Below are positions 5,601-29,034 of a DNA stretch of 64,000 nucleotides, in pieces. Source of the stretch: Candidatus Uhrbacteria bacterium (GTDB taxonomy: Bacteria; Patescibacteriota; Patescibacteriia; JACRJV01); assembly GCA_016215325.1 (NCBI GenBank), contig JACRJV010000007.1, positions 3,728-67,727 of the forward strand, written 5' to 3'. Each line of letters starts with the position of its first letter. Position 1 is the stretch's first letter. Made by a program: the position numbers and the translations under genes. Below the pieces are notes generated by a model that searched no databases, was not told where the DNA came from, and saw only the letters and a list, made by a program, of their open reading frames with translations.

Positions 5601-8600
5601 CGTGACACCGCTGCCGGAGAAATCCGGCGCGCCATAGATGAGCGCCGCGCCAGAGCCGATGTCAGACGCCAAATTTACAACATGACTCGTAACACCGGTG
5701 GTGGTGGAGCCGGTAACACGAATGGCGGTGTCCCAGCCGCTGCCAATCTTCACCGCAGTTTCGGTGGCCGCGTTCGCGGTGATATCCCCAATATTCAACG
5801 CATTATATGTCCCCCCTTGAGGACCCGCAGGAACTAAATTAATTAAATTAATGGTGTCCCCGGCAGAACCATCAGAAGAAACGCTCGCGACCCGCAGTCC
5901 ATCCGCATTGATGGTGCCGTCCGTATACGCCGCGTTCCCTCCGCCGACCGAAATGTTCACCCCTCGCGAATTCACGGTGACACCGGCGACATCCGCTGAC
6001 ATTTGATTGGTAACATCGATGCCCGTCAATGTTTTAGTCCCTGAACCAGAGGCTGGTGTCCCAGGGATTGTTAATGACAACCCGGTAATCGCCGATGTGT
6101 TATCAAGAGTAAGATTTGAACTTAAATCCATTGCCATCCCCGTTATTGCTCCGCTTTGCGTGGTCGCAGAACCAAAGTCCGCGTTGATGAGCGAGCCAGT
6201 CGTCCACTCGGTTTCCAAGGCAAAATCGAGGAATGTTCCAGTGGTCGTGGGGCTAATGGTCAGCGCCCCGCTCATCCCCAGCGTCGTCACATCACTCACG
6301 GCCCCTGCGTTAATATCAATCCCATTAATGCTTTCATCCGTGGCTACCGTGAGTTGCCCAGAGGAGTTGATATAATATGAAGATGAGTGGAACTGTATGT
6401 CTCCTTTGGTGGAGTTAGAGGTGGAGATCAACAGAAGGTCATCGCCACTGCCAGAACCACCGACAAGATCTCCTTGGGTGCCATCAGCAAACAGAGCATA
6501 GTTGGTGGTGGCGCCAGAGGCGGAGAAGTAGCCACCGTAATTAGATGAGGTGGTTCCGGTGTTAGCAACGGTGGAATAGACTCCATACGCCGTGTGCGTG
6601 GCATTGCTGTTGGTACCAGAGCGAGTAAGTTTCAAAAGTGCGGTAGAGCCAGACCCACCGCCCACGGTAGAGGTTGATTCGATAAATACTCCGGTGCCCG
6701 TGGTCAGCCCGTCGGCAGAAATCTGAAGCGCGTCAGCCGTTGAAACAGAGTCAGCCGTAATCTGAGCCGCATCCGTGGTGTTGCCGGTGTAGGTTTGGAC
6801 GAAGGTGCCGGTGCCGGAGGCTAGGGCAAAATTCGCATTGGCATCAATAGTCGTACCGCCGAGCGTAACAGTGCTGTCAACGTTCAAAGTAGATGTGGTG
6901 GAAATAGCACCATCGGCAGTGATGGCTCCGATGCCGCTCATGTCCCCGGTGGTGTTGATGTCCCAGTCAGAGGAATCGATCGCAACAGTATCGCCGCTAT
7001 CGCCGAGATCAACTTGCCCATTGGCATCCAACGCTCCGGCAAGAGTGAGTCCCCCAGTGGAAGTAAAATCCGTACCAGCGTTTCCGATGTTTACGAGAAT
7101 GTTGGCACTAAGATCAATGCCGGTATCCCAACCAGAACCGATACTCAAAGCGGTTTCGGTGCCATTGCCAGCAGTGATATTGCCAATATTAATTCCATAC
7201 AATGTTCCCGCGCCCACTCCAGCAGCCGCGAGGTTGATAATATTTTGGGTCCCGGCGGTGGTGATCGTGCCATTGACAAGACGGATGCCGTTGGCCGTCA
7301 CAGTGTCGCCGGTATTCTGGGTAATGTTGGGCATGGTGATGTTGGCGCCTCGCCAGTTGATGATCGCGGCATTGGCTCCATCGGTAACAGACAGAGCGCC
7401 GGCAGCCGAGATATTGTAGCCGGTGTATGTGGTAGTGACGGCGGAGTCTGCGGCAGTCAAGGCATTCATCACAATGTCTGTGCCGGTGATGTCGAGATCT
7501 GCTGCTCCGGTTAAGTTCGTATCAAAATCAAATTTAAGGCCAGTGATATCCCCTCCAGATTGCGTGGTGACATTGGCAAAATCAGCATTAATAAGGGTGC
7601 CTTGGGTCCATTCAGTTTCGAGTTGATAATCCGTAAATGTGCCGGTGGTGGTTGGAGCGATGGTGAGCGCCCCGCTCATGCCCAACGTCGTCACATCACT
7701 CACGGCCCCAGAGCTCACATCGATGCCGTTGAGGGTTTCATCGGTCGCAAACGTCGCTTGTCCCGAAGAGTTGATAATGTAGCTGGACGAATGGAATTGA
7801 ATGTCGCCCTTGGTCGCATTGGAAGTGGAGACCAAGAGGAGATCATCGCCGGAACCTGTGCCGCCGACCAGATCGCCCTCGGTTCCGTTGGCGACGAGCG
7901 CATAATTCACGATCAATCCAGAGGCAGTCGAAGCCGCGAAGTACCCAGCAATGTTGGTACCGCTGGTGGCGTTGACATTAGTAACCGAGGAATAGATTCC
8001 ATAGGCTGTGTGAGCGCTATTGGCGTTAGTGCCAGAACGGGTCAGTGTGACGAGCGCGGTGTCATCTGATCCCGTACCTACTGTGGAAGTTGAAATAATA
8101 TTCAAAGCATTGCCTGTGGTTAAGCCACTGGCCGTGATCTGGAGCGCATCGGCAGTGGTCACAGAGCTCGCAGTAATCTGCGCCGCATCGGTGGTATCGC
8201 CAGTAAAAGTCTGCACAAACGTGCCAGTGCCAGAGGCAAGGGCAAAATTATTGTTCGCCGCTACAGTTGTGGCACCGGTCAAGGAGACGGGTCCGGTAAG
8301 GGTGATCGTTCCGCTGCTGCCGCCAATGCTAAACCGGCTTGAGCTGGTGTTTACATCGTAAATTTCAAACGCGTTGGCAATTGTGATCGATGAACCTGCG
8401 CGCCAATCGCTCGGGTAGCCGGTTTTAAATTCTATCGTCGCCGGATTTCCAATATCCGTCTTATCTAAGATAAGCATGTTATAGGAAGAGCTACGATCTC
8501 CACCCGAGTCTTTGATAACGAGGTTTGTGGTTGGCGTTGTCGTCCCAATACCAACGTATCCGGAACCTGGGCTTAATACCAGATCATCGCCAGAACTCGT

Positions 8601-11600
8601 AACAATTTCAACTGCGGTGTTGGTATCTTCGTCCAGATCAAATGTTAATGTATTCGTGCCATCGGAAAAAGAAAGCTCGGTGTCTGTAGAATTGACGATT
8701 GTCTCGCCATTTCCCAGAGTGAGCGTACCGTCCAATCGTGTGGTCCCCGCATCCACCCACAAGGCATAGGCATTGGTGATGGTGGCAGGCCCAGCGCCCG
8801 CGCCCGTAGGCGCATTGGCAATATAGAGTGATGCCGCATTGGTTACCGTAAGAGTAGAGGCAGCGGAGAGTGTCGATTGAGCAATATTCAGAAGATTAAA
8901 CCCCGTGGCAGTCGTGATATTTGTAGAGCCAGTGATGGTGGCGGTTGCCGCAGAAAGATCGATGCCGTTCCAAGTGGCGCTGGCGCCTGAGGCAATAGTT
9001 TCGTTACCAGAAATCGCAGGATTTGTGATGGTGGCAGTATTGATCGCAGGACTAGTTAATGTTTTGTTTGTAAGAGTATCAGTAGTCGCTCGACCGACAT
9101 AGGTGTCCGTTCCTTGGAAGGTGATTGTTGTGGAATCCGTACCAGCGAGAGTCAAAGAGTTACTCGCCGTCAGCGTCTTACCATCGGCGATCGTGAGTGT
9201 GCCAGTGGATGCTGTTACTGTAAGTCCGTTGATTGTCTTATTCGTCAGCGCCTCTGCACCCGCAAGAGTGGCGAGCGTACCGGTCGTTGGAAGAGTAACG
9301 TTTGTTGCTCCGGTTGTTGTGAGTGTAAGAGAGTTCGCCCCAGAGGTAATGAGTGCTCCGGCAGTGGTGAGGTTCCCAGCCAAGTTAATCGTGCGAGCCG
9401 CATCGTTGGTGGTGATTGTCAGTATTCGGCCAGCTGTAAGATTCTCAGTGTTGGCAAGAGTGAGATCAAACGCGCCGGTGCCGGTGGAACGAATGCCTAA
9501 GGACGTGAGTGCGTCAGCAGTGCCGCCGTTGATATCTGGACTGGTCAGCGTTTTGTTCGTCAATGTATCGGTCGTGGCACGGCCAACTAGCGTATCAGTT
9601 CCGGTGGGAATCGTGATGGTGCCGCTATTAGAGATGGAGGCGATCACTGGGGTTGTGAGGGTTTTGTTGGTGAGCGTATCGGTTGTCGCGCGGCCGACAT
9701 ACGTGTCTGTTCCCTGAAATGTGATGGTTGTCGCATCTGTTCCTGCCAATGTGAGTGAATTGCTCGCGGTTAAGGTCTTCCCATCCGCGATCGTCAACGT
9801 GGCCGAAGTGGTCGGCGCGGTAATGGCGACCTTATTAATGGATGTTGCAGAAGCAACGCCTAAAGTCGGAGTAACGAGGGTCGGAGACGTCGAAAAGACG
9901 AGATTCGTGCTCGTGGTTCCTGTTGTTCCGCCCGCAGAGGAAAGATAGTTCAACTGTGTTCCCGTCGACGTAACCGATGTTGCTCCAAGTGTAAACGGTG
10001 TGGGAATGGTGACCGTGCCGGTGAAGGTGGGGCTTTCTAAAAATGCAAATGTTTTCCGTGCTGCGCCGGTCGTGATGGTGCCGTAATACGCATCGGTCAA
10101 GAATTCCACGGCCCCGGCTTCGGCAGTGGTCATCAGTGACCCAGAGTTAAACTTGAGCGGCGCTGTGGAAGCGCTGGTGGTGCCAGCTTTGAGGTGAAGG
10201 ACAGCAGTGGGGGTTGTGACCCCGATGCCGACATTTCCATCAAAACGCACAGCCCCATCATCCACCCATAACGCATAGGCATTGGTGATGGTGGCTGGCC
10301 CAGCGCCTCCGCCCGTGGGGGCATTGGCAATATATGCTGTTGCGGCATTCGTCACAGTTAATGCTGAAGCTGCCGAGAGTGTTGGTTGGGCAATATTCAA
10401 CAGATTAAACCCAGCGGCTGTCGTGATGTTGGTGGAGCCGGTGATGGTGGCTGTGGCCGCAGAAAGATCGATCCCGTTCCAGGTGGCACTCGCACCAGAG
10501 GCGATCGTTTCGTTGCCAGAGATCGCGGGGTTGGTAATGGTAGCGGTATTAATCGCAGGACTGGTCAATGTCTTGTTCGTGAGCGTATCCGTGGTGGCTC
10601 GACCGACAAGCGTATCTGTTCCGGTGGGGATCGTGATAGTACCGGAGTTGGAAATGGAAGCGATCACGGGAGTTGTGAGTGTTTTGTTGGTGAGCGTATC
10701 CGTCGTCGCCCGGCCAACATACGTGTCTGTTCCTTGAAAGGTGATTGTTGTCGCATCTGTTCCTGCCAATGTGAGTGAATTACTCGCAGTCAACGTTTTC
10801 CCATCGGCGATCGTGAGGGTGGCCGATGTTGCCGGCGCGGTAATCGCCACCTTGTTGATTGAGGTTGCGGATGCAACGCCTAGTACGGGGGTAACAAGCG
10901 TCGGGGTTGTGGCAAATACCAGCGCTCCAGAACCGGTTTCATCGGTGAGTTGTCCTGAAATGCCCGAAGATGCGGTAGTAGCGGTCACGGCACTCGTGCC
11001 ATTGCCGATTAAGATGCCTGAGAGCGTCCCCGCTCCAGTACCTCCTTGAGCAACCGCTAATGCAGTGGTTAATCCCGAAATCGACGTGATGTCCGAATTT
11101 GCTCCCGATGCGGCGGCGCCTAAATTTGCTCGCGCATTCGCGGCGGTTGTTGCGCCAGTGCCGCCGTTAGCCACTGCAATCGTCGTCCCATTCCAGGTCC
11201 CGGCCGTGATCGTCCCAACCGTCGCAATGTCGGTACCCACCAGTTTTGAAGCCGCAATCGAGCCCGTGAGCATGCCATTCGTGACCGATCCGGTATCACC
11301 AGTGGTGACAATAGTACCACTGACATTGGGAATGCTCAGCGTTCGGGTTGCCCCCGCGCTTACACCGGAGATTTGGAATGCGAGTTGCTTGGTTGTGTCG
11401 CTATCGTCTTGGATAACGAAGTTTGTATCTTTCAACGTCGCTGCGTTCGTATTATCAATCGTCTTGTTGGTGAATGTTTCACTACCGGCAAGGGTCGCAA
11501 TAGTGCCGGTGGTCGGCAAGGTGAGGGTCGTCGCCCCCGTTGTTGCGAGCGTTAGGGCATTCGCTCCGGATGTCGTGAATGCCCCCGCAAGCGTGAGATT

Positions 11601-12377
11601 GCCATCGAGATTAATCGTGGTGCCCGCTCCTTGAATTGTTTTGTCCGCGCCCGTCACCGTCAATGTCCGCGATGTGGTGCCCCCGGCAACAGTGAACCCG
11701 TCCGCGGCCGAGGCAAGTGTCAATCCATTGACGGCGCCGCTGGTCACAGTGCCGGTGCCAGAACTTCCCACCGTGAGCGTGCCGGCCACGGTTGCATCAC
11801 CTTCGGCATCCACTTTGAATCGGCTCGTGCCATTCACCGCAATGCCAAAGAGCGTGTAGTTGGCGGTGACGCTCGCGGGGTTTATGTAGACAACACCTTG
11901 ACTCACGCCCGTTCCCGACGGGGTGCCAGTCAACGTAAAATTTCCGGAAGAGCTGGTCACGGGGACAAATGCAGAAAGGCCGCCAATGGCCGATGTTTCT
12001 AATCCATCGAGCCGATCGGTGTTGACGGCGTACCCCGATGCCCCAATCCGGCGTCGTGGCGAGAGCGTTTCGCCATTGACTTGGACCTCGAGATACAATG
12101 TGTCGTTATCGAACAACGTCACCGGGAATGCGTTTTGTGATCCGCCACCGGCAGATGTATCACCTAAGAGCACGCTAAACTCGCCACTGGCCACAGCCAC
12201 ACTCATGGTCGACGACGGACTCGTGCACCCATTCGCTCCCGTGCCTTTCGCAGACCATTGGCAGGTGCCGGACGTTGCGGCGTCGTAAATCACAAATGCC
12301 ATGTTGTAGTTGGCATCGCTTACCGCCGAACCGCTGGAAGTCTTGAGGACCCCCTGGTAACTCATGACATGGGGCAC
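2691..12377 (-). CDS. Giant repeat-rich, tail-fibre-like surface protein, 3228 aa as called from a GTG start. The C-terminus carries an intramolecular-chaperone (peptidase S74-like) domain plus a Pro/Glu/Thr/Ala-rich tail.
   Basis: This is a single uninterrupted 9.7-kb ORF. It is extremely rich in Gly, Thr, Ser, Ala and Asn. Modules of the form ...TDTLTNKTLTTPVIASISNSGTITIPTGTDTLVGRATTDTLTNKTLTSP... are reiterated. Some copies are identical at the DNA level, for example around 9.1-9.7 kb versus 10.4-10.8 kb. Two ~250-aa paralogous blocks begin ANNNFALASGTGTFVQTFTGDTTDAAQITA... and ANANFALASGTGTFVQTYTGNTTDAAQITA... Near the N-terminus there is a motif NGGTGATTAANARANLGAA like those seen in phage tail fibres. 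The C-terminal region reads ...DDDGNIGIGTTDPQYKLHVMGDVAATSFVNISTKEAKKDIEYLTEGDQKTILAKLANVNIARYHYKEE..., which matches the architecture of the 'chaperone of endosialidase' / peptidase S74 domain. A coiled coil and a PAPEPTPAPEP low-complexity tail follow. No signal peptide appears after the called start (see the mini-ORF at 12408..12488). Confidence 0.85.
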   Translation of the reverse strand: MPHVMSYQGVLKTSSGSAVSDANYNMAFVIYDAATSGTCQWSAKGTGANGCTSPSSTMSVAVASGEFSVLLGDTSAGGGSQNAFPVTLFDNDTLYLEVQVNGETLSPRRRIGASGYAVNTDRLDGLETSAIGGLSAFVPVTSSSGNFTLTGTPSGTGVSQGVVYINPASVTANYTLFGIAVNGTSRFKVDAEGDATVAGTLTVGSSGTGTVTSGAVNGLTLASAADGFTVAGGTTSRTLTVTGADKTIQGAGTTINLDGNLTLAGAFTTSGANALTLATTGATTLTLPTTGTIATLAGSETFTNKTIDNTNAATLKDTNFVIQDDSDTTKQLAFQISGVSAGATRTLSIPNVSGTIVTTGDTGSVTNGMLTGSIAASKLVGTDIATVGTITAGTWNGTTIAVANGGTGATTAANARANLGAAASGANSDITSISGLTTALAVAQGGTGAGTLSGILIGNGTSAVTATTASSGISGQLTDETGSGALVFATTPTLVTPVLGVASATSINKVAITAPATSATLTIADGKTLTASNSLTLAGTDATTITFQGTDTYVGRATTDTLTNKTLTTPVIASISNSGTITIPTGTDTLVGRATTDTLTNKTLTSPAINTATITNPAISGNETIASGASATWNGIDLSAATATITGSTNITTAAGFNLLNIAQPTLSAASALTVTNAATAYIANAPTGGGAGPATITNAYALWVDDGAVRFDGNVGIGVTTPTAVLHLKAGTTSASTAPLKFNSGSLMTTAEAGAVEFLTDAYYGTITTGAARKTFAFLESPTFTGTVTIPTPFTLGATSVTSTGTQLNYLSSAGGTTGTTSTNLVFSTSPTLVTPTLGVASATSINKVAITAPTTSATLTIADGKTLTASNSLTLAGTDATTITFQGTDTYVGRATTDTLTNKTLTTPVIASISNSGTITIPTGTDTLVGRATTDTLTNKTLTSPDINGGTADALTSLGIRSTGTGAFDLTLANTENLTAGRILTITTNDAARTINLAGNLTTAGALITSGANSLTLTTTGATNVTLPTTGTLATLAGAEALTNKTINGLTVTASTGTLTIADGKTLTASNSLTLAGTDSTTITFQGTDTYVGRATTDTLTNKTLTSPAINTATITNPAISGNETIASGASATWNGIDLSAATATITGSTNITTATGFNLLNIAQSTLSAASTLTVTNAASLYIANAPTGAGAGPATITNAYALWVDAGTTRLDGTLTLGNGETIVNSTDTELSFSDGTNTLTFDLDEDTNTAVEIVTSSGDDLVLSPGSGYVGIGTTTPTTNLVIKDSGGDRSSSYNMLILDKTDIGNPATIEFKTGYPSDWRAGSSITIANAFEIYDVNTSSSRFSIGGSSGTITLTGPVSLTGATTVAANNNFALASGTGTFVQTFTGDTTDAAQITASSVTTADALQITASGLTTGNALNIISTSTVGTGSDDTALVTLTRSGTNANSAHTAYGIYSSVTNVNATSGTNIAGYFAASTASGLIVNYALVANGTEGDLVGGTGSGDDLLLVSTSNATKGDIQFHSSSYIINSSGQATFATDETLNGIDVSSGAVSDVTTLGMSGALTIAPTTTGTFTDYQLETEWTQGTLINADFANVTTQSGGDITGLKFDFDTNLTGAADLDITGTDIVMNALTAADSAVTTTYTGYNISAAGALSVTDGANAAIINWRGANITMPNITQNTGDTVTANGIRLVNGTITTAGTQNIINLAAAGVGAGTLYGINIGNITAGNGTETALSIGSGWDTGIDLSANILVNIGNAGTDFTSTGGLTLAGALDANGQVDLGDSGDTVAIDSSDWDINTTGDMSGIGAITADGAISTTSTLNVDSTVTLGGTTIDANANFALASGTGTFVQTYTGNTTDAAQITADSVSTADALQISADGLTTGTGVFIESTSTVGGGSGSTALLKLTRSGTNSNATHTAYGVYSTVANTGTTSSNYGGYFSASGATTNYALFADGTQGDLVGGSGSGDDLLLISTSNSTKGDIQFHSSSYYINSSGQLTVATDESINGIDINAGAVSDVTTLGMSGALTISPTTTGTFLDFALETEWTTGSLINADFGSATTQSGAITGMAMDLSSNLTLDNTSAITGLSLTIPGTPASGSGTKTLTGIDVTNQMSADVAGVTVNSRGVNISVGGGNAAYTDGTINADGLRVASVSSDGSAGDTINLINLVPAGPQGGTYNALNIGDITANAATETAVKIGSGWDTAIRVTGSTTTGVTSHVVNLASDIGSGAALIYGAPDFSGSGVTGYGLNITATDSTANTNTDYGYYGSLALTGNAAKYGYGLYQTVTSNSTTADTIAALDIATSVTGAISTGTRTVYGLRSQPATSGASSGGTANVYGSYLAPSSTASSTGSTVNVYGEYIANTATLTTNGTINSYGLYIADGTSTTTGTSTKTGLYVASPTGADTNYTAIFAGGYVGIGDTTPTAALDVVGSGVFTTGSTTSVLTGSIDPTASTDVTGVGTAFLTELVVGDSITVSGETRMVTQIGNNTNLSVNVAFSDNANDTSVDRTPVQGITLQNTTASTATNDAQYSPALTFHGSSWVNPGPGLASYSQDWRVFSANQEGGGSQLRFDYNQFGNGYNTPMSLAANGNLNLALVTATFGNDTGESGNSWTGSVFTVNNNQTSTAVSGANSIVGNYFKFTNQPSVSNNVEYAMLIENQPTTNTTDNFVSALLVLNNADTAVTGPASTVVTDALLIANTGGAGITNDIKFQNSETIDNASDGTVNIKDSGGTAILTGSLTAFQINLDDTTTYTQRVCQSGADAATGLVNIGDCNAGGSDMAEYYGSDGTLEAGDIVAISGEAQEFVQERIGQSSKASVAKSQAVYAPITGVVSTNPFSEVLGEGVFTTEEHPVPIVLAGRIPVKVNLEGGDIAAGDRITTSSIAGVGMKAKTSGWTVGVALESYNAQSPDNKIVVWFNPQYRIESSQMAFDDDGNIGIGTTDPQYKLHVMGDVAATSFVNISTKEAKKDIEYLTEGDQKTILAKLANVNIARYHYKEESATAPLRMGLIAEEAPLEVLSIDGKGVDIYKLATFTLSAVKAQQTQIEKLFERMEQFEQRLDRLTGETTRSSQEELSFLRAEIQGIREQSQQQVRQQSASAPAPIITLKEIEEDPPTTPVEKKIEEPPSQASEVEPAPEPAVVTETPALPEPPITETPTASSEPTPTPAPEPTPAPEPVAEAAPAQSEPAAVEQAAATESAPAPAQPETVAQE

Positions 12378-16051: not shown

Positions 16052-16504
16052 AAAGATACGATGATCAATGAACCATTGTCATTATATATTAGCATAACCT
16101 TTTCTAGAGTACAACTTTTTTACCGATTTACTAAACTTCGTATGGTGAAGAGTTGTCGATACAAAAAGCCGCCCTTGTGAGGCGGCTTTCGCTTGCCCCG
16201 CAGCGATTGCTCAGGGCGAAGTTGACTCAAGAAACGTGATAGCAATGACGTCACCCGATCATTTGATCGGGTCATTCGTTGGTGGAGTACTGCCGCCCTC
16301 AATGCGCGCTGAAAGAGTACAGCAGTATTCCACCAACAAATGTCGACTTGGACTTTCGTCCAAATTACTCCCTAGAAAGGAGGTGATCCATCCACAGCTT
16401 CCGCTACGGATGCCTTGTTACGACTTCGTCCCTGTCACCAATCCTACCTTCTGACGGTTGTCCGCCATTCGGGTATTATCGGCTCCCTTGACGTGACGGG
16501 CGGT

Positions 16505-17239
16505 ATTACGATCACAACAATCTTATGATTGTTGTGTCACTGATCACCACTGGGCAAACGGCTTTCCCGTACCCTAGCGGTTCCCAAATATCGTTATTGT
16601 TTTCTTCCCGTTCCTCCGCGCCATCTCGCGCAACGCCAGAATTTTTGAATATCCGGTGTCGCTCAGATGTTCTTTCTTCGCGATGATTTCCACCACGCGT
16701 CGAAAGATGTTGAAGGATTGCTGTTTTTTCGACTGAAGAGGGTGTTGTGCCTTCTCCGTCAACAAAACCCACAACATAGTGTGGCGGTAACGGTCGGAAA
16801 TGATAATTTGGTTTCACTCCTTCCCCAGAAAAACTTCTGAGTACTATGAGATCTGCTGACTTCTTGTACTTCATAAGAATGCTTGTTTCCAAACACTCCG
16901 CCATCACCTCGTGATTAATTCATCACGATGTAGTATACCACAATTTGATGATGGAAGGTACAAGATCTCCCTGGGTCACGAACAAGAATAATTGTCTCTA
17001 TCGGGATCCTAATCACATACAGCATTTTGTGTTCGAATAATTTCCCCCTGTACGCGCGGGGTCATCCAAACTGTATGCCACCATTGATTCACGCTAAAGA
17101 CTGCGTCCGAACTCTCGTCAGAGCCCTCGCGGGCACTGGCGTGTTCTTTGCTTCAAGTCTTTCGAACGAGACTTGGTCGGATTTCCTGCCTGCCGACAGG
17201 CAGGTCACCAACATTCGTTGTCCGCTACCAGGCGGTCCG
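16505..17239 (-). mobile_element. Intron/IVS inside the 16S rRNA gene, inserted between the GUACAC and ACCGCCCGUC segments near E. coli position ~1397
   Basis: The boundaries are unambiguous by alignment to the universal 16S sequence. The intron begins GGACCGCCUGG and ends ...CGUAAU, so it shows neither the group I terminal G nor the group II GUGYG. Its class cannot be determined by eye. Confidence 0.8.
16512..16907 (-). pseudogene. Degenerate LAGLIDADG homing-endonuclease ORF inside the 16S intron, probably frameshifted
   Basis: The 131-aa ORF contains ...HYVVGFVDGEG, a LAGLIDADG motif, but then turns low-complexity. An overlapping ORF in a second frame (16574..16777) carries the endonuclease-like continuation ...SFNIFRRVVEIIAKKEHLSDTGYSKILALRE... 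Confidence 0.5.
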
Positions 17240-17550
17240 TGTACAAAACCCGAGAACGTATTCACCGCGGCGAGGCTGATCCGCGATTACTAGCGATTCC
17301 TGCTTCATGAGGGCGAGTTGCAGCCCTCAATCTGAACTGGGGGGTGATTTGATGGGATTAGCTCCAGCTTGCGCTTTGGCGGCCCATTGTAGCACCCCAT
17401 TGTAGCACGTGTGTCGCCCAGGACGTAAGAGCCATGCTGATTTGACGTCATCCCCACCTTCCTCCCCCTTGAGGGGGGCAGTCTCGCCAGACACTTGTAA
17501 CTGGCAATAGGGGTTGCGCTCGTTTCCAGACTTAACTGTACACCTTACGG

Positions 17551-17583
<33 letters not shown>

Positions 17584-17695
17584 TGCACCCTCGAAGGTCA
17601 CACGTTTCCGTGCGCTTGCAGCATCATGTCAAGCCCTGGTAAGGTTCCTCGCTTATTGTCGAATTGAACCACATGCTCCACCGCTTGTGCGGGTT

Positions 17696-17744
<49 letters not shown>

Positions 17745-19037
17745 GATACTTAAGGGGTTACCTTTGATAAACGACACTGGGAGGGTCGATACTCCCAATG
17801 TCTAGTATCCATCGTTTACGGCGTGGATTACGCGGGTATCTAATCCGCTTCACTCCCCACGCTTTCGTCTCTCAGCGTCAGATCCGTCCTAGTATGCTGC
17901 TTTCGCCTTTGGTGTTCCTGCCGATATTAACGCATTTTACTACTACACCGACAGTTCCGCATACCTCTTCCGGCCTCAATCCTGACCATCTCTCCCGCAG
18001 CGCCGAAGTTAAGCTTCAGCATTTAACAGAAGATGCATCAGGACGCCTACAGACGCTTTACGCCCAATAAATCCGGATAACGCTTGAACCACTCGTATTA
18101 CCGCGGCTGCTGGCACGAGTTTAGCAGGTCCTTATTCCCACCATACCGTCAGAAATCGGGGATCGGATATCGGAAATCGAAACGGAGGAATCCGACTTCT
18201 GATCTCTGAACCCCGACCTCTTCTTCTGGTGGAAAAGCAGTTTACACTCCGAAGAGCTTCATCCTGCACGCGGCGTCGCTCCCTCAGACTTTCGTCCATT
18301 GGGGAAGATTCTTGACTGCAGCCTCCCGTAGGAGTCGGGCCAGTATTTCAGTGCCCGTGAGGCGGGTCGTGCTCTCACACCCGCTACCCGTCGTCGCCTT
18401 GGTGGGCTTTTACCCCGCCAACTAGCTGATAGGCCATAGGCCCCTCTCCGAGCGGATTGCTCCGTTACTCCAAAACTCTTGCGAGAATGGAGACCATTGG
18501 GAATTAGCGTCTCTTTCGAAACGTTATGCCCATCTCGAAGGTAGGTTACCAATGTGTTACTCACCCGTTTGCCACTCTGCGCGCTCCGCGCTGAAATATC
18601 GATATATCGAAATATCGAAATGTCAGTGCGAAGCACGCAGCGTTCGACTTGCATGCCTTAGACACGCCGCCAGCGTTCATCCTGAACCAGGATCAAATTC
18701 TCAAGAAGATTGAATGTTGATTGCTCAACGGTTCAATATACTGTTCCTAAGAACAGATTTGGTTGCTTAGTTATTTTGTTGAATTGACGTATTGCTATCA
18801 CGTTTCTTGTTTCAACCTTACATTGTTGTCTACCCAATTTTCAATGTACGATCCCTTGAGAGAGAAAAAAATACACCCGCCCATGTGCTTCCAGCGCATC
18901 CGTAAATCCACACATAGACTGGCTGTAGAATGTTTCCGTATTGTTGGCCGTTTGGGCCATCCCCAAGGGGCAACGGGTAGTATGACGGAAACAAAAGCCG
19001 GTGTCAAGAGCAAGTCTGAGATGCAAATACATCTCCG

Positions 19038-19316
19038 TTACCGATACAATTGACTATGCGTTCCGAGAAATAAAAATACGAATGCATCGTCGCTTAATAC
19101 TTTGTAGATCGCTCTCCAATCTCCAGTGACGTCGATACTACGATATCCCAAATACATTCCTTGGAGCGCGTGATTACTCAGACGTGAATCAAACGGGTCG
19201 CGTTGGAACGAACCAAGGCGCTCATACAACGCTGCTTGAATCTTTGTTGGGGCTGTTTGAAGCTGCTTCTTAAATCGAGTATGGAAGTGAATCGTCATAA
19301 CTACAGCCGGAATCAC
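19038..19316 (-). CDS. relE: Type II toxin of the RelE/ParE (YafQ-like) family
   Basis: The sequence ...ALQGMYLGYRSIDVTGDWRAIYKV... matches the family signature. There is a 4-nt overlap with the upstream antitoxin gene. Confidence 0.75.
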   Translation of the reverse strand: MIPAVVMTIHFHTRFKKQLQTAPTKIQAALYERLGSFQRDPFDSRLSNHALQGMYLGYRSIDVTGDWRAIYKVLSDDAFVFLFLGTHSQLYR

Positions 19317-19594
19317 TTCTGTTTCAGGTACTCGATCATTTTGTTGACATCCGTAAACCCTTTGGACATATTGCGTCCTTTCTTGATGTCACGATCGATA
19401 GGACCGAGCGCCCGCTCCAGCTCCTCGGACATCGTGAACGGCTCGCCCAGCGTCAACCGCTTCTCTCGCACGAATTGTTTGAGTTGAGCGTTCACGATGA
19501 TACTGAGCGGGACACCAACATCATGCGCCAATCGTTGGGCCTTGGTCTTGAGGACTTTATCAATTTTTACATTAAGGACGGTTTTAGTCTCCAT
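19313..19594 (-). CDS. relB: RelB/DinJ-family antitoxin
   Basis: This 93-aa gene sits upstream of the toxin and is translationally coupled to it. The sequence ...LNVKIDKVLKTKAQRLAHDVGVPLSIIVNAQLKQFV... is a ribbon-helix-helix-like N-terminus. Confidence 0.65.
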   Translation of the reverse strand: METKTVLNVKIDKVLKTKAQRLAHDVGVPLSIIVNAQLKQFVREKRLTLGEPFTMSEELERALGPIDRDIKKGRNMSKGFTDVNKMIEYLKQK

Positions 19595-19625
19595 ATAATA
19601 AGTGATAGTGAATACCCATAACTAA

Positions 19626-19654
19626 AGTATACACAACGGTTATAATTTTGTCAA
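19626..19654 (-). promoter_or_regulatory. Sigma70-type promoter for relBE
   Basis: The minus strand reads TTGACA-17 nt-TATACT. It ends about 30 nt upstream of the relB ATG. Confidence 0.55.
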
Positions 19655-19710
19655 TGGACTGGCAAATACTGCAGCGGGGGGCGGGGAGGCCGCTATCGCT
19701 ATAATAGACA

Positions 19711-19746
19711 AGCCCCTGGACGCACACGGTGGTGTACATCCAGGGG
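19711..19746 (-). terminator. GC-rich stem-loop downstream of the Cys-peptide ORF
   Basis: The 9-bp stem GCCCCTGGA...TCCAGGGGC encloses an 18-nt loop. On the minus strand it is followed by TTGTCTATTATAG. Confidence 0.35.
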
Positions 19747-19798
19747 CTGCGCGAGTCCGGGGCAATGCGCGCTGTGCGCCATCGCCCCGGGGTCACAG

Positions 19799-19897
19799 TC
19801 AGTGACAGCGCCCGCTGCAACGCGGGCACCAGTACGTTCTGCACCAACCGCACCAGTAGTAACTGCATCCACACCAACAGTCCCCTGCCCAGGACAT
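19799..19897 (-). CDS. Small 32-aa peptide rich in Cys and Trp, MSWAGDCWCGCSYYWCGWCRTYWCPRCSGRCH. An alternative start at 19912 gives MEELG...
   Basis: A perfect GGAGGAG Shine-Dalgarno sequence lies 6 nt upstream of the ATG. The peptide has 9 Cys, 5 Trp and 3 Tyr in 32 residues. It lies in a GC-rich island. Confidence 0.45.
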   Translation of the reverse strand: MSWAGDCWCGCSYYWCGWCRTYWCPRCSGRCH

Positions 19898-19938
19898 TCC
19901 AAGCTCCTCCATACCCCTCGCTTTCCGGGCGAGGTTCG

Positions 19939-20166
19939 TTACACGGACGGAGAAAATGTTCCAATCGACCCGCCACAGGTGTGGTGGCGGATTTCCCCAT
20001 TCGAGGTTGCCACGATCACGAACCGTCCTCGATGACGCTCGCCGATATGATCTGGCGGGCATCCACACGGGATGGCTCTGATCGCACGAGGCGTATCCAT
20101 GGCCTGGGGGAGATTTCGCCATCGTCGTGAGCGCATCTCAACCCAGTAACGAAAGTTCATTTTCAT
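19939..20166 (-). CDS. Hypothetical 75-aa protein, first ORF of the mini-operon
   Basis: GGAGGAG sits 4 nt upstream of the ATG. The sequence is MKMNFRYWVEMRSRRWRNLPQAMDTPRAIRAIPCGCPPDHIGERHRGRFVIVATSNGEIRHHTCGGSIGTFSPSV. I recognised no family. Confidence 0.35.
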   Translation of the reverse strand: MKMNFRYWVEMRSRRWRNLPQAMDTPRAIRAIPCGCPPDHIGERHRGRFVIVATSNGEIRHHTCGGSIGTFSPSV

Positions 20167-20746
20167 GCTGCTCCTCCGTTAGTTTGATTACGAAACTCCT
20201 CTACCGGAACTTGGCCCTGCAGTAGAAGCAAAAAAAATACTTGCAGAATATGCAATAATAAGTCCTCCCACTACATATTTCGCACGCCCAGGCGGTCTCT
20301 AAACTCCATGCCGCGGCGCACCAAATACAATGATATCTCATCTTTCCTTTCTCAATCTCGCTTTCCGGGCGAGACGATCGTCACCACCAGTTGTCAATGT
20401 CCAATTCCCCCTCCTCTGGCGCCCCGAGCATGATTCCGGATGCCGGAGGAGAATACAAAACAAAGCCACCGCCGGATAAGGGCGGTGGCCGTTTTTGCGT
20501 TTAAGAAGGATTGTTCTTATGCAAACTTAGCCAGCCCTTACCGGGGTAAGGAGGCTAAGAAGCAAACTCTTTTGTACAACAGAAATAATCATAATAAAGC
20601 CATGATAGGCGTTTACTGGGGTGTTGTCAAGCAACAAGATGTAAGAGCAGAATCTGCTATTCGTCTGCTGGATGTGAGGAGCATTCCAAACTCCTTGCCG
20701 TTCCGAAAGGGTCGAAAACGGCAACATTATATCATTAATAATAACG

Positions 20747-22174
20747 ATGCCACGTATGAACTTCATCCCTCTTACCCTTGCCGGTGCCTTGATCGTCACT
20801 TCGTTCTCGTTCAAACTCCCTTGGAACTGGAACGTGAACACAGACGCACAAGGCCAGCAGACCGCCACCGTCACGGTTGCAGCCAACGCAAATACAAATG
20901 ACAAAAAGGGAAATGGAAACGGGAACGCAAATGGACAACAGAAACCCATGCCGTGGGGGATCTTCAAAAAGTTGCTCACCGCAGCCAATGATGTGACCGC
21001 GCCCATCTTACGCGACATTCGCGTCAAGGCGGAATCAGAGGGCAGCGCAAAAATAGAATGGAAAACCAACGAAAAAACTTCGGGTGAAGTCCGGTATGGA
21101 TTAACCGCAAATTACGGGCTCATGAACACAGACAACGGGAAGATGAAGAAAAGCCATTCGGTCAAACTCTCAAACTTGTCAGCCAATACCACCTACCACA
21201 TCCAAGTCGTCAGTAAAGACGCAGCCGGCAATGTGGCCACTTCGGCCGATATGACGGTCACCACAAAACCGGCAGAACCCCGTGAGGACGATGATGAAGA
21301 AGATGAGGACCGCGATACCATCGCCCCGTTGCTGTTCAACCTCTCGGTCAATGGCGAAACACGCGACTCTGCGGTTGTCCGCTGGGCGACCAATGAAAAA
21401 ACTACAAGCCAAGTGCACTATGGCCTTACAGCAAGTTATGGGCAATCCACCAGCGTGGATACAGATCTAACCACCAATCACGAAGTCCGATTGATCGGGC
21501 TTACCGCCAATACGACGTACCACTTCAAGGTTGAATCCAAAGATGCCGCCGGTAATGTCTCAGCCAGCGGTGATGTGACGCTCACGACCCGGGCAGCTCC
21601 GGATATAACGGCTCCGATTATCTCCGACGTAAATGTATCCGCTACGACGGATCACTCGGCAACGATCCAATGGACCAGTAACGAAGGGGCAACGTCTCAA
21701 GTGCTCTATGGCACAACCGCAAGTTATGGGTCTTCCACAACAATCGACTCGTCTCTGACAACGAGTCATTCGGTAGCCCTCTCCGGCCTTGCCGCCAACA
21801 CCACCTACCACTACCAAGTGAAGTCGGTGGATGGATCCGGCAACATCTCAACCTCTGCGGATGCAACATTCACAACCGCTGGGGATGCCACGGCTCCAAC
21901 AATCTCCAATCTAGTCGTGACCAATGTCGCGCGGACAACGGCAATCGTGCGATGGACGACCAGCGAACCGGCGACATCGAAGGTATCTTACAGTGCGGGA
22001 TCGAGCTTTAACGCCGACACCGCCTTCAGCCTGAGTAGCTCTGCGCTTCTGGGCAATCACAGCATGTTGATTGTGGGGCTCTCCGCCAATACCACGTATA
22101 CACTCAAGGTGGATTCTGTGGACGCCTCTGGCAATGCCGCCGCCTCGGCACAACTGACGTTCACAACGCGCTAG
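20747..22174 (+). CDS. Secreted protein with four tandem fibronectin-III-like repeats
   Basis: There is a signal peptide. A ~95-aa unit ending ...LSGLxANTTYHxxVxSxDAAGNxS...TxTT is repeated four times, joined by an acidic linker. Confidence 0.65.
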   Translation: MPRMNFIPLTLAGALIVTSFSFKLPWNWNVNTDAQGQQTATVTVAANANTNDKKGNGNGNANGQQKPMPWGIFKKLLTAANDVTAPILRDIRVKAESEGSAKIEWKTNEKTSGEVRYGLTANYGLMNTDNGKMKKSHSVKLSNLSANTTYHIQVVSKDAAGNVATSADMTVTTKPAEPREDDDEEDEDRDTIAPLLFNLSVNGETRDSAVVRWATNEKTTSQVHYGLTASYGQSTSVDTDLTTNHEVRLIGLTANTTYHFKVESKDAAGNVSASGDVTLTTRAAPDITAPIISDVNVSATTDHSATIQWTSNEGATSQVLYGTTASYGSSTTIDSSLTTSHSVALSGLAANTTYHYQVKSVDGSGNISTSADATFTTAGDATAPTISNLVVTNVARTTAIVRWTTSEPATSKVSYSAGSSFNADTAFSLSSSALLGNHSMLIVGLSANTTYTLKVDSVDASGNAAASAQLTFTTR

Positions 22175-25611: not shown

Positions 25612-26016
25612 TTAGTTTTTGAGTGACGAGTTGCGAGTGACGAGTTTTTGTCGCTTTTGCTCTTCAAGATATGAAATGAGTGCGCCCACTCTCTTGGCTA
25701 AGAGTTCCAACGTATTATTGGTGCCATCAAACTCGGATTGAGAAATATGCCCCACTGAAAGGGCAATGTGCAGTTGATTGCGGACCTCACCAATTGAACC
25801 TCTGGCACTCCTTAAGAAACGGCAAAACTCATTATTATTTCTTTTCTCAAACCCTTCAACAATGTTAGAACTGATGGAAATTACCGCTCGCCGTATTTGG
25901 TCTCGCAATCCGAAATCTTTAGAAAATTTTTCTTTTGCTGATAAATCATAGATAACTTTGGTGTTTTCTAAGCTCATTTGCCATATCTCTAAATCTTCGA
26001 ATCGCGTAATATTCAT
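25612..26016 (-). CDS. Four-helix-bundle protein (TIGR02436 / '23S rRNA intervening-sequence protein' family)
   Basis: The sequence ...KFSKDFGLRDQIRRAVISISSNIVEGFEKR...FLRSARGSIGEVRNQL... is characteristic of this family. Confidence 0.75.
   Translation of the reverse strand: MNITRFEDLEIWQMSLENTKVIYDLSAKEKFSKDFGLRDQIRRAVISISSNIVEGFEKRNNNEFCRFLRSARGSIGEVRNQLHIALSVGHISQSEFDGTNNTLELLAKRVGALISYLEEQKRQKLVTRNSSLKN
25613..25650. repeat. Left inverted-repeat arm flanking the four-helix-bundle gene (GAGTGACGAGTTGCGAGTGACGAGTTTTTGTCGC)
   Basis: It is about 80% complementary to the arm at 26020..26062. It belongs to the same family as the trmD insert. Confidence 0.65.
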
Positions 26017-28565: not shown

Positions 28566-28799
28566 TTAAAGTAGCTCCAAAAATTCTTCGATCGAAATCC
28601 CCATATCGTCAATGATGCTCCTGAGCAATGGTTTTTTAATCGTTCGGCCTCCATGCATTGGAATAACTGTTCTTCGGTGACGGGATGGATGAATATAAAC
28701 TGCATGGCTTCCACTTTGTCGATCAAACAAAAAACCAGCGCGTTCCAATGCTCGAGTCACTTCTCGAGCATTGAGTGCCGGCAACTGGGATAACCCCAT
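28566..28799 (-). CDS. hicA: HicA-family toxin, an mRNA interferase. The ORF is open to 28916.
   Basis: The sequence ...LNAREVTRALERAGFLFDRQSGSHAVYIHPSRHRRTVIPMHGGRTIKKPLLRSII... matches the family signature. Confidence 0.75.
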   Translation of the reverse strand: MGLSQLPALNAREVTRALERAGFLFDRQSGSHAVYIHPSRHRRTVIPMHGGRTIKKPLLRSIIDDMGISIEEFLELL

Positions 28800-28803
28800 A
28801 GTG

Positions 28804-29034
28804 TTATGCCGCGAACTCAACCTCCACCGTCCCCTGAAACACTTTTTGCTCTTGCGGCACTGGCTCATGATGCGCTTGGAGACTCTCAATGTACAGCGCG
28901 ATAGCATCTTTAACATTTGCCTCGGCTTCTTCTAGTGTTTCCCCTTGTGTATGACAACCCGGCAATGTGGGCACAAAAGCCGTAACACCTCCTTCAAGAT
29001 CGTACTGATAGATAACCGAATATCGATAACTCAT
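28804..29034 (-). CDS. hicB: HicB-family antitoxin
   Basis: The sequence ...TAFVPTLPGCHTQGETLEEAEANVKDAIALYIESL... matches HicB and the gene sits upstream of hicA. Confidence 0.7.
   Translation of the reverse strand: MSYRYSVIYQYDLEGGVTAFVPTLPGCHTQGETLEEAEANVKDAIALYIESLQAHHEPVPQEQKVFQGTVEVEFAA

Follow-up and report, generated by a model that had tools for sequence, protein, structure and literature searches.

The P1-ORF75-P2 locus

The DNA described here is a window of 64,000 nt (64 kb) from a metagenome-assembled genome (MAG) of a Candidatus Uhrbacteria bacterium (Patescibacteria, also known as candidate phyla radiation or CPR), in which it forms part of an 84,251-nt contig. The gap 19595-20755 (1,161 nt), located between a relBE-like toxin-antitoxin gene pair and a divergently oriented FN3 gene, is the largest intergenic stretch of this window. 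Three small open reading frames (ORFs) are found on the minus strand of this gap, namely P1, ORF75, and P2. All of them start with ATG, and together they cover 20341..19799 without overlap, separated by spacers of 34 and 41 nt. An ORF coverage as high as that of this tiling was obtained in 3.6% of shuffles (P = 0.036). P1 and P2, two Cys-rich ORFs that share a repeated peptide unit and an identical upstream stem-loop, are the main subject of this report.

In a preliminary description of the locus, a mini-operon of two ORFs was proposed. The coordinates of its 75-aa ORF (20166..19939, minus strand) and its 32-aa ORF (19897..19799, minus strand) were found to be right, and the small ORFs with unusually strong ribosome-binding sites, the repeated hairpin, and the 3' stem-loop of that mini-operon are indeed present. 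However, P1 had been overlooked and the unit thus comprises at least three ORFs.

Composition and repeat structure of P1 and P2

P1 (20341..20201, minus strand) encodes 46 amino acids, MRYHCIWCAAAWSLETAWACEICSGRTYYCIFCKYFFCFYCRAKFR, from an ATG start to a TAG stop. Its eight cysteines form four CxxC motifs that begin at residue 5, and they are accompanied by 13 aromatic residues and a net charge of about +4. P2 (19897..19799, minus strand) encodes 32 amino acids, MSWAGDCWCGCSYYWCGWCRTYWCPRCSGRCH, with Cys at positions 7, 9, 11, 16, 19, 24, 27, and 31. The eight aromatic residues of P2 (five Trp and three Tyr) had been counted correctly before, but its cysteines number eight instead of nine. 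Among the 1000 ORFs of at least 20 amino acids in the window, P2 and P1 (in this order) are the two most Cys-dense, and they are found 300 bp apart on the same strand. Both peptides are basic and lack a signal peptide or double-glycine motif, while aromatic residues make up 25-28% of their sequences.

The two peptides have an 8-residue unit in common, with the pattern aromatic-aromatic-C-x-x-C-x-x. P1 contains four such units (YHCIWCAA, WACEICSG, YYCIFCKY, and FFCFYCRA) and P2 contains two (YWCGWCRT and YWCPRCSG), next to a CWCGC head. The ungapped alignment of YYCIFCKYFFCFYCRAK (P1) with YWCGWCRTYWCPRCSGR (P2) reaches a composition-adjusted BLASTP E-value of 0.003. At the DNA level, blastn found no similarity between P1 and P2 besides the hairpin, and a DNA tandem repeat behind the peptide repeat was not found either. 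The residues conserved between P1 and P2 are encoded by differing synonymous codons (TGT/TGC, TAT/TAC, AGT/AGC, and AGG/AGA). When the DNA was shuffled with its dinucleotide composition retained, four CxxC motifs in 46 amino acids were observed in none of 3000 shuffles, and at least seven cysteines in 32 amino acids in 0.6% of them. As a sequence feature, the P1/P2 pair is genuine and statistically non-random.

Both peptides were also modeled with AlphaFold2 in single-sequence mode, at modest confidence (mean pLDDT of 61 for P1 and 69 for P2). The P1 model, to be read with the same reserve, shows a beta-hairpin at residues 28-43 that spans CxxC-x4-CxxC.

Translation signals and coding evidence

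The ribosome-binding sites of the three ORFs differ in strength. In front of P1, only a weak Shine-Dalgarno (SD) sequence is found (AAGGA, 3 nt before the ATG). ORF75 and P2 are both preceded by GGAGGAG, at 20177..20171 (4 nt before the ATG) and at 19910..19904 (6 nt before the ATG), respectively. As had been noted before for the GC-rich stretch, these two ORFs alone have the motif at the right spacing there. The whole window contains 13 copies of GGAGGAG, and only these two precede an ATG with a sizeable ORF (at least 20 amino acids). Two of the other 11 copies are followed by an ATG at 4-12 nt, opening ORFs of 6 and 26 amino acids. When intergenic ORFs of at least 20 amino acids with an ATG and a 5-nt SD core were collected from the window, five were obtained, three of which lie in the gap 19595-20755, all on the minus strand.

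ORF75 (20166..19939, minus strand, 75 amino acids) starts 34 nt past the stop codon of P1. It encodes a basic protein with CGC and HHTCGG motifs and its codon score is intermediate. Its status as a real gene is uncertain.

Farther upstream, a fourth small ORF, P0 (20684..20613, minus strand), encodes 23 amino acids, MLLTSSRRIADSALTSCCLTTPQ, and has a hairpin (20724..20695) and AAGGAGTTTGGAATG in front of it. The latter matches the ribosome-binding module of P2, GGAGCTTGGAATG, at 13 of 14 positions, and the module common to P0 and P2 can be written as AGGAG[C/T]TTGGAATG (repeat D4). P0 is a weak candidate for a small gene.

The use of SD sequences sets the small ORFs apart from the rest of the window. 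SD cores precede all four small ORFs (P0, P1, ORF75, and P2) compared to 4 of the 43 confident genes (hypergeometric P of about 4e-4). The remaining 39 confident genes do without an SD core (at least 4 nt at -17..-4), although the anti-SD of the 16S rRNA is intact. SD sequences are rarely used in this genome, and the few ORFs that have one are clustered in the gap 19595-20755.

Codon usage proved less helpful. P1 and P2 score low in terms of host codons, in part because of their odd amino acid composition, and the scoring is uninformative for both. The GC content by codon position is likewise uninformative for the coding question. As regards RNA folding, no excess of structure is seen over the ORF bodies (z of about 0). 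An mRNA is favored over a large structured RNA, because the folding excess is local, the z-score over the ORF bodies is near 0, and no Rfam family matches. A pseudogene remnant on either strand was considered as well and rejected: the stop-to-stop segments of at least 24 amino acids were collected in all six frames, and the main ones have no Pfam match at E <= 10.

A repeated stem-loop and a 3' hairpin block

The 17-nt sequence CTCGCCCGGAAAGCGAG occurs exactly twice in the 64 kb, at 20373..20357 and at 19933..19917 on the minus strand, while about 0.18 copies would be expected by chance. A covariance-model search found no third copy in the window. The first copy (20355..20375, minus strand) folds as GU-CUCGC-CCGGAAA-GCGAG-AU, its stem being extended by U-A and G.U pairs, and 15 nt separate its end from the P1 ATG downstream. 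The second copy (19916..19934, minus strand) folds as C-CUCGC-CCGGAAA-GCGAG-G and is located between the ORF75 stop codon and the P2 SD. Its stem is extended by a C-G pair, which is compensatory to the U-A pair of copy 1.

The preliminary description had assigned the two exact copies to ORF75 and to P2. This assignment holds for P2 but not for ORF75, whose start codon is 191 nt away from the first copy. Given its position 15 nt before the P1 ATG, the first copy belongs to P1 instead. Since the frames of the two copies relative to the downstream ORFs differ, the hairpin is an element at the level of the nucleic acid and not of the coding sequence. The 17 identical nucleotides are embedded in dissimilar flanks, which argues for selection or for very recent gene conversion. 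The same 17-mer was also found outside this genome, with 7 viral and at least 120 metagenome matches, all as single, chance-like copies and mostly on high-GC contigs. Among the matches listed, similarity was confined to the hairpin and a few adjoining bases, and no downstream ORF with P1- or P2-like CxxC repeats was present.

Further upstream, the two copies are accompanied by similar short motifs, ATTGGAC (20399..20405, minus strand) and ATTGGAA (19959..19965, minus strand, inside the 3' part of ORF75). In both cases, the distance from the start of TTGGA to the core of the hairpin is 31 nt, and the motifs might be a further part of the shared upstream arrangement. The ATTGGAC upstream of hairpin 1 could serve as a -35-like element, although it is not followed by a convincing -10 element. 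In the same region, a short upstream ORF, MLGAPEEGELDIDNWW (20381-20431, minus strand), extends over 16 amino acids from its ATG and ends with two Trp codons and a stop codon, 7 nt upstream of hairpin 1. This ORF lacks an SD, and its 5' part is included in a hairpin in which CUCCUCC is paired with GGAGGGG.

The 3' end of the cluster is formed by a block of hairpins (19830..19711, minus strand). Where a single GC-rich stem-loop after the peptide had been described, four near-perfect hairpins are in fact present: A (19830..19807), B (19806..19792), C (19790..19757), and D (19748..19711). The block has a folding energy of -89.8 kcal/mol (z = -9.24, 200 shuffles). Hairpin D consists of a 17-bp stem followed by the U-rich tail UUGUCUAUUAU and is terminator-like. 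The folding excess of the block is specific to the minus strand, and the G.U pairs of hairpins C and D, as well as the one in the stem extension of hairpin 1, exist in the minus-strand RNA only. P2 reaches into this block: hairpin A contains its last nine codons, and its stop codon falls in the loop of hairpin B.

A separate unit from promoter to terminator (20630..20455, minus strand) is located upstream of P1. It starts with a promoter-like TTGACA-17-TATCAT (20630..20602, an 11/12 match), continues with a structured stretch of about 140 nt, and closes with a bidirectional intrinsic terminator (20490..20464) that has a 10-bp stem and a T-run. The structured stretch (z = -4.5) contains CCUCCUU within a hairpin. 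The unit also contains a possible near-leaderless ORF for a hydrophobic peptide of 22 amino acids, MIIISVVQKSLLLSLLTPVRAG, and it has no match to an Rfam family. It could be a small RNA or a leader upstream of P1, with a putative tie to the ORFs.

Genomic context and assembly support

Along the minus strand, the gap with P1, ORF75, and P2 follows after the 16S rRNA, a relE/yafQ-like gene, and a relB-like gene. On the other side, the divergent FN3 gene and trmD are found. The FN3 protein (20756..22174, plus strand) is 100% identical to MBI5134824.1 and the RelB-like protein (19594..19313, minus strand) corresponds to MBI5134822.1. As stated in the preliminary description, the small ORF unit is situated directly upstream of the relBE promoter (promoter-like TTGACA-17-TATACT at 19654..19626, minus strand). 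The YafQ/RelE-like toxin (19316..19038, minus strand) matches YafQ_toxin with E = 4.6e-9, over the gathering score, and the RelE-like toxin of the PHROGs with E = 4.8e-10. The RelB and DUF6364 matches of the antitoxin are weak and stay under the gathering score. The two genes overlap by 4 nt, in agreement with a type II toxin-antitoxin system of the relBE kind.

The only gene that has been publicly annotated in the gap is a hypothetical protein (HZA86_01130, MBI5134823.1) of 130 amino acids with a GTG start (19976..19584, minus strand). It overlaps P2 out of frame and extends across the four hairpins and the promoter of relBE, with an 11-nt overlap with relB.

The GC-rich island of about 800 bp that had been described around the small ORFs is real but shorter. 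High GC is confined to 19655-20140 (about 490 bp), with a value of 0.619 compared to the window mean of 0.513, which places it in the top 0.08% of 486-nt windows. The adjacent part (20141-20440) has a GC content of 0.487. An analysis of GC content and codon usage had been suggested as a check for horizontal acquisition. Of these two, the GC content is indeed foreign to the host, while codon scoring is uninformative for P1 and P2.

Only one other public copy of the locus was found, a 963-bp Logan contig (SRR12113407_328207, here L001) that is 100% identical to 18774-19736. This contig, which was assembled independently from the same strain, breaks off precisely within hairpin D. The break may represent a strain-variable junction, or it may be an assembly problem caused by the palindrome.

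Other small modules are found a few kb away, including a free-standing gene for a 23S rRNA intervening sequence protein (25612-26016, minus strand; PF05635, E = 4e-30) and a HicA-like toxin gene (28566-28916, minus strand; PF07927, E = 1e-18). Together with relBE, they suggest that the region is rich in small mobile or addiction modules. The window also contains a giant ORF (2691-12377, minus strand) of 3,228 amino acids with a GTG start.

The 16S rRNA gene (16377-18708, minus strand) is interrupted. Its 5' part covers 18708..17225, and the sequence departs from the consensus directly after GTACAC at about 17236. The 3' exon restarts near 16503 (CCGCCCGTCACGTCA) and ends with the intact anti-SD GGATCACCTCCTT (16389..16377), which carries CCUCC. 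The insertion of about 730 nt has an Rfam match to group-II-intron D1-D4 (16900..16817) and holds a 131-aa ORF (16907..16512) without a Pfam match. In CPR bacteria, rRNA genes typically carry insertions.

Database searches

Profile and sequence searches were carried out with the small ORFs. Pfam-A returned no family for P2 and ORF75 (hmmscan, E <= 1), and NCBIfam, which includes SCIFF, returned none for P1, P2, and ORF75 at E <= 10. PHROGs and PADLOC gave nothing significant for the ORFs of the gap. A search of 5.8 billion indexed proteins was negative for P1 and for a 107-aa ORF in which P2 is included, and an exhaustive HMMER search of P1 against 1.84 billion representatives yielded just two spurious repeat proteins. 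No homologue of P1, P2, or ORF75 was found in viral contigs or among the metagenome matches listed. Overall, ORF75 is without a family, PDB, PHROG, or viral match. With P1, a phmmer search of the PDB gave the zinc-knuckle protein Air2 as sole match (E = 9.7), which is not significant, and P2 had no significant match in the PDB either. Exact-protein look-ups returned no record for P1, P2, ORF75, and two proteins of 138 and 133 amino acids, while that of RelB led only to the identical Logan contig. At the RNA level, no family of Rfam 15 reached its gathering threshold, and relaxed filters gave Pab19 as best match (18 bits compared to a gathering threshold of 55).

The wider neighborhood was equally unproductive. 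Among 185,579 GTDB species representatives, the nearest TrmD proteins (from Magasanikiibacteria, Uhrbacteria, and Parcubacteria) are 49% identical, and none of 80 trmD loci resembles the gap region. Small Cys-rich pieces in two other CPR loci (L012 and L024) were rejected as relatives, since they have no start codons and show no likeness to P1 or P2. An origin from a known phage or plasmid was rejected as well, as a distant-mode blastn search of 50,697 phage and 72,556 plasmid records gave no match.

Comparison with known systems

In terms of their likely mode of action, P1 and P2 most resemble the CxxC zinc-finger micro-proteins of haloarchaea, which include the C(P)XCG proteins from Haloferax volcanii (PMC11241148, PMC10716476) and Brz from Halobacterium (PMC2253796). 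This analogy is based on size (less than 70 amino acids), a cytoplasmic location, the CxxC pairs with four Cys per metal site, and an often basic character. The C(P)XCG motif as such is absent, however, since Gly never follows the second Cys in P1 (CIWCA, CEICS, CIFCK, and CFYCR) or in P2 (CGWCR and CPRCS). Furthermore, the units of P1 and P2 follow one another head-to-tail with a period of 8 residues and not at intervals of 10-30 residues, their aromatic content is extreme, there is no sequence homology, and their metal binding is a prediction.

A more local likeness exists to the knuckles of rubredoxins and zinc ribbons (PF00301 and related families). The pattern of a rubredoxin knuckle is approximately W-V-C-P-x-C-G, and the aromatic-x-C-x-x-C arrangement in YWCPRCSG and YWCGWCRT of P2 resembles it. 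In P1 and P2, however, the knuckles are separated by a spacer of 4 residues, and not by about 25-30, no Pfam match was obtained at E <= 1, and the P1 and P2 models, which are of low confidence, match no fold in the PDB.

Bacterial metallothioneins (SmtA/BmtA) are also small and Cys-rich, with about 8-9 Cys for several metal ions. Metallothioneins are poor in aromatic residues, in contrast to the 13 of 46 residues in P1 and the 8 of 32 in P2, and Pfam provides no match. Precursors of the SCIFF/ranthipeptide class, which are ribosomally made peptides that undergo post-translational modification (RiPPs), with six cysteines in forty-five residues that are modified by radical-SAM enzymes (PMC7470986), resemble P1 in length (about 45 amino acids) and in their many cysteines. 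They differ from P1 and P2 in Cys spacing and in the aromatic richness of the latter, and neither a leader, nor a match in NCBIfam or Pfam, nor a radical-SAM (SPASM) maturase in the 64 kb could be found. SCIFF, metallothionein, and any Rfam family were consequently rejected as the identity of these ORFs, as none gave a profile match.

Finally, P2 recalls the leader peptides of trpL/hisL attenuators, as it is a short ORF that is enriched in rare amino acids (Cys and Trp) and is placed before hairpins and a terminator. In this case, however, the downstream operon is a toxin-antitoxin system with its own promoter and not a biosynthetic operon, no antiterminator was seen, and the second, similar ORF P1 is not followed by a terminator.

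Proposed function of P1 and P2

The explanation that we favor, if tentatively and short of an even chance, is that P1 and P2 are orphan small proteins with zinc-knuckle-like CxxC repeats, that their genes are co-regulated through the shared 5' stem-loop, and that the cluster was probably acquired horizontally. The minus-strand cluster P1-ORF75-P2 would thereby occupy the space between relBE and the FN3 gene, with ORF75 as a possible partner protein. P1 and P2 would be diverged paralogues composed of the 8-residue aromatic-aromatic-Cys-x-x-Cys-x-x unit. Both are predicted to be small cytoplasmic proteins, and each would fold around two metal ions, most likely at Zn(Cys)4 sites with knuckles of the rubredoxin or zinc-ribbon type. 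This prediction is derived from the regularity of the CxxC pairs, from the residues of aromatic and basic type, and from the missing export signal. Three functions had been put forward in the preliminary description, and metal binding is the one that best fits the sequences, given the CxxC pairs in an 8-residue repeat, the basic nature of the peptides, and the missing signal peptide. If translated, P1 and P2 would accordingly count as small Cys-knuckle proteins of a known kind.

For the 17-nt stem-loop, the best reading is that of a cis-regulatory RNA element shared by the two 5' untranslated regions, acting as a stabilizer or as a binding site through which P1 and P2 would be co-regulated, with a DNA operator as alternative. 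The four-hairpin terminator block would close the cluster and insulate the relBE promoter. A GC content and an SD use that are foreign to the host, next to the adjacency of a toxin-antitoxin system, suggest horizontal acquisition of the cluster, possibly together with relBE.

A bolder version of this proposal is much less probable, but it deserves mention. P1 and P2 could found a new family of bacterial micro-proteins made of 8-residue zinc knuckles in head-to-tail order that bind the stem-loops of their own genes, forming an autoregulatory module that travels as a small mobile cassette near relBE. RNA binding is a feature of the retroviral nucleocapsid knuckles, and the same is proposed for P1 and P2 in this version.

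Several observations weigh against P1 and P2 as functional proteins. None of the resources searched contains a homologue of P1, P2, or ORF75, and no close relative genome that might reveal purifying selection was found. Host codon usage scores both ORFs like non-coding frames. The SD of P1 is not only weak but also too near to the ATG, and no convincing sigma-70 promoter is located directly upstream of P1 or P2. One third of P2, its C-terminal part, is encoded by a perfect hairpin. Real DNA often contains Cys-rich off-frame segments (at least 8 Cys per 46 amino acids, or at least three CxxC with at least 8 aromatics), with 122 cases in 2.1 Mb or about 1 per 17 kb, and Cys density alone is therefore weak evidence. 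A Foldseek search of the PDB with the low-confidence models of P1 and P2 gave no fold match. Lastly, the stretch 19737-20440 is supported by a single MAG assembly, as the Logan contig stops at 19736. As biology, the orphan proteins P1 and P2 are hence plausible but unproven, and their translation is a prediction.

Alternative explanations

The most serious rival, which we consider unlikely on balance but far from negligible, holds that the region is a functionless remnant of foreign or decayed GC-rich DNA (possibly a mobile cassette that arrived with relBE), in which composition and palindromes produce chance ORFs and at most the hairpins and terminators matter. In its favor, no frame of the region has a host-like coding signal, database homologues are lacking, and the frequency of Cys-rich off-frame segments makes a chance occurrence conceivable. 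The frame antisense to P2 is a low-complexity sequence rich in Ala, Pro, and Thr, the C-terminus of P2 is dictated by the perfect hairpin, and the ORF tiling is only modestly unusual. A chance origin would nonetheless have to explain two Cys- and aromatic-rich ORFs that have the same 8-residue period, share one strand, and both come with an ATG, an SD, and the identical hairpin upstream. Four CxxC motifs that no shuffle reproduced would need an explanation as well, as would the exact conservation of 17 nt in dissimilar flanks and the coupling of SD and ATG at both GGAGGAG sites of the locus, compared to the two short-ORF cases among the 11 other copies. In addition, an empty gap of 1.16 kb is unusual in such a densely packed window.

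It is improbable that the locus instead acts as a non-coding RNA (ncRNA) or cis-regulatory RNA of the minus strand, or as a leader-peptide attenuator in which the translation of P2 controls the read-through of hairpin D into relBE. The folding of the minus strand over 846 nt (z = -8.95, compared to -3.85 for the plus strand), the four-hairpin block (z = -9.2), and the G.U pairs that fit a minus-strand RNA are in line with such an RNA, and P2 does end within hairpins just upstream of the terminator and relBE. The excess is limited, however, to 19661-19900 and the terminator region 20441-20560, with z-scores near 0 elsewhere, and no Rfam family was found even with lax filters. A large structured ncRNA in place of coding sequence is thus not supported. 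One in the style of OLE, GOLLD, ROOL, or HEARO was rejected, as the z-score of -8.95 for the whole region could be traced to the 3' block and one terminator, and Rfam gave nothing. For the attenuator, a reading of the minimum-free-energy and centroid folds revealed no antiterminator that would compete with the 17-bp hairpin D. Termination would not depend on where the ribosome is, because the hairpins are self-contained perfect stems and no antiterminator is seen. Moreover, relBE has its own strong promoter past the terminator.

Slightly less probable still is the proposal that P1 and P2 are RiPP precursors (ranthipeptide/SCIFF, sactipeptide, or aromatic-crosslinked) or a bacteriocin, with a maturase and exporter elsewhere in the genome. 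Short precursors rich in Cys and aromatic residues would suit this proposal, as would two paralogous copies, which are common for RiPP precursors, and ORF75 could be a partner protein of no known family. On the other hand, the approximately 45 ORFs in the 64 kb contain no radical-SAM, YcaO, lanthionine-synthetase, P450, peptidase, or ABC-exporter domain, in agreement with the earlier statement that no maturase is present in the window. The peptides also lack a leader, as their cysteines start at residue 5 (P1) and residue 7 (P2), and NCBIfam, Pfam, and SCIFF provide no match, which disfavors the RiPP precursor that had been considered. CPR genomes are, in addition, small and poor in secondary metabolism. 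The secreted, disulfide-knotted bacteriocin of the preliminary description is disfavored too, given that neither a signal or double-glycine leader nor a nearby transporter or immunity gene could be found.

The least probable option, that the annotated 130-aa ORF (MBI5134823.1) is the real gene and P2 its out-of-frame shadow, can draw on the call by PGAP, on the partial presence of the ORF on the independent Logan contig, and on the best codon score of the region (+13.2 for a 138-aa version, reached by 0.5% of non-coding frames), but its per-codon score is about one third of that of real genes, its GTG start has no SD, its translation would have to pass through hairpins of -90 kcal/mol and the relBE promoter and run into relB, and it remains a singleton cluster without a family, so that this public annotation is probably wrong and a gene-finder artifact.

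Implications

Provided that they are translated, P1 and P2 would rank with the smallest and densest proteins with CxxC repeats that have been described. Their host phylum, CPR/Patescibacteria, has a small proteome (in the sense of small proteins) that is essentially unexplored. The locus also illustrates the limit of database searches for ORFs of 30-50 amino acids, as 1.84 billion cluster representatives contained nothing comparable. Either P1 and P2 form a true orphan family, or ORFs of this kind are systematically missed in gene calling. Both peptides can be synthesized and the 17-nt RNA hairpin is short, so that metal binding and RNA binding would be testable in vitro without cultivation of the organism.

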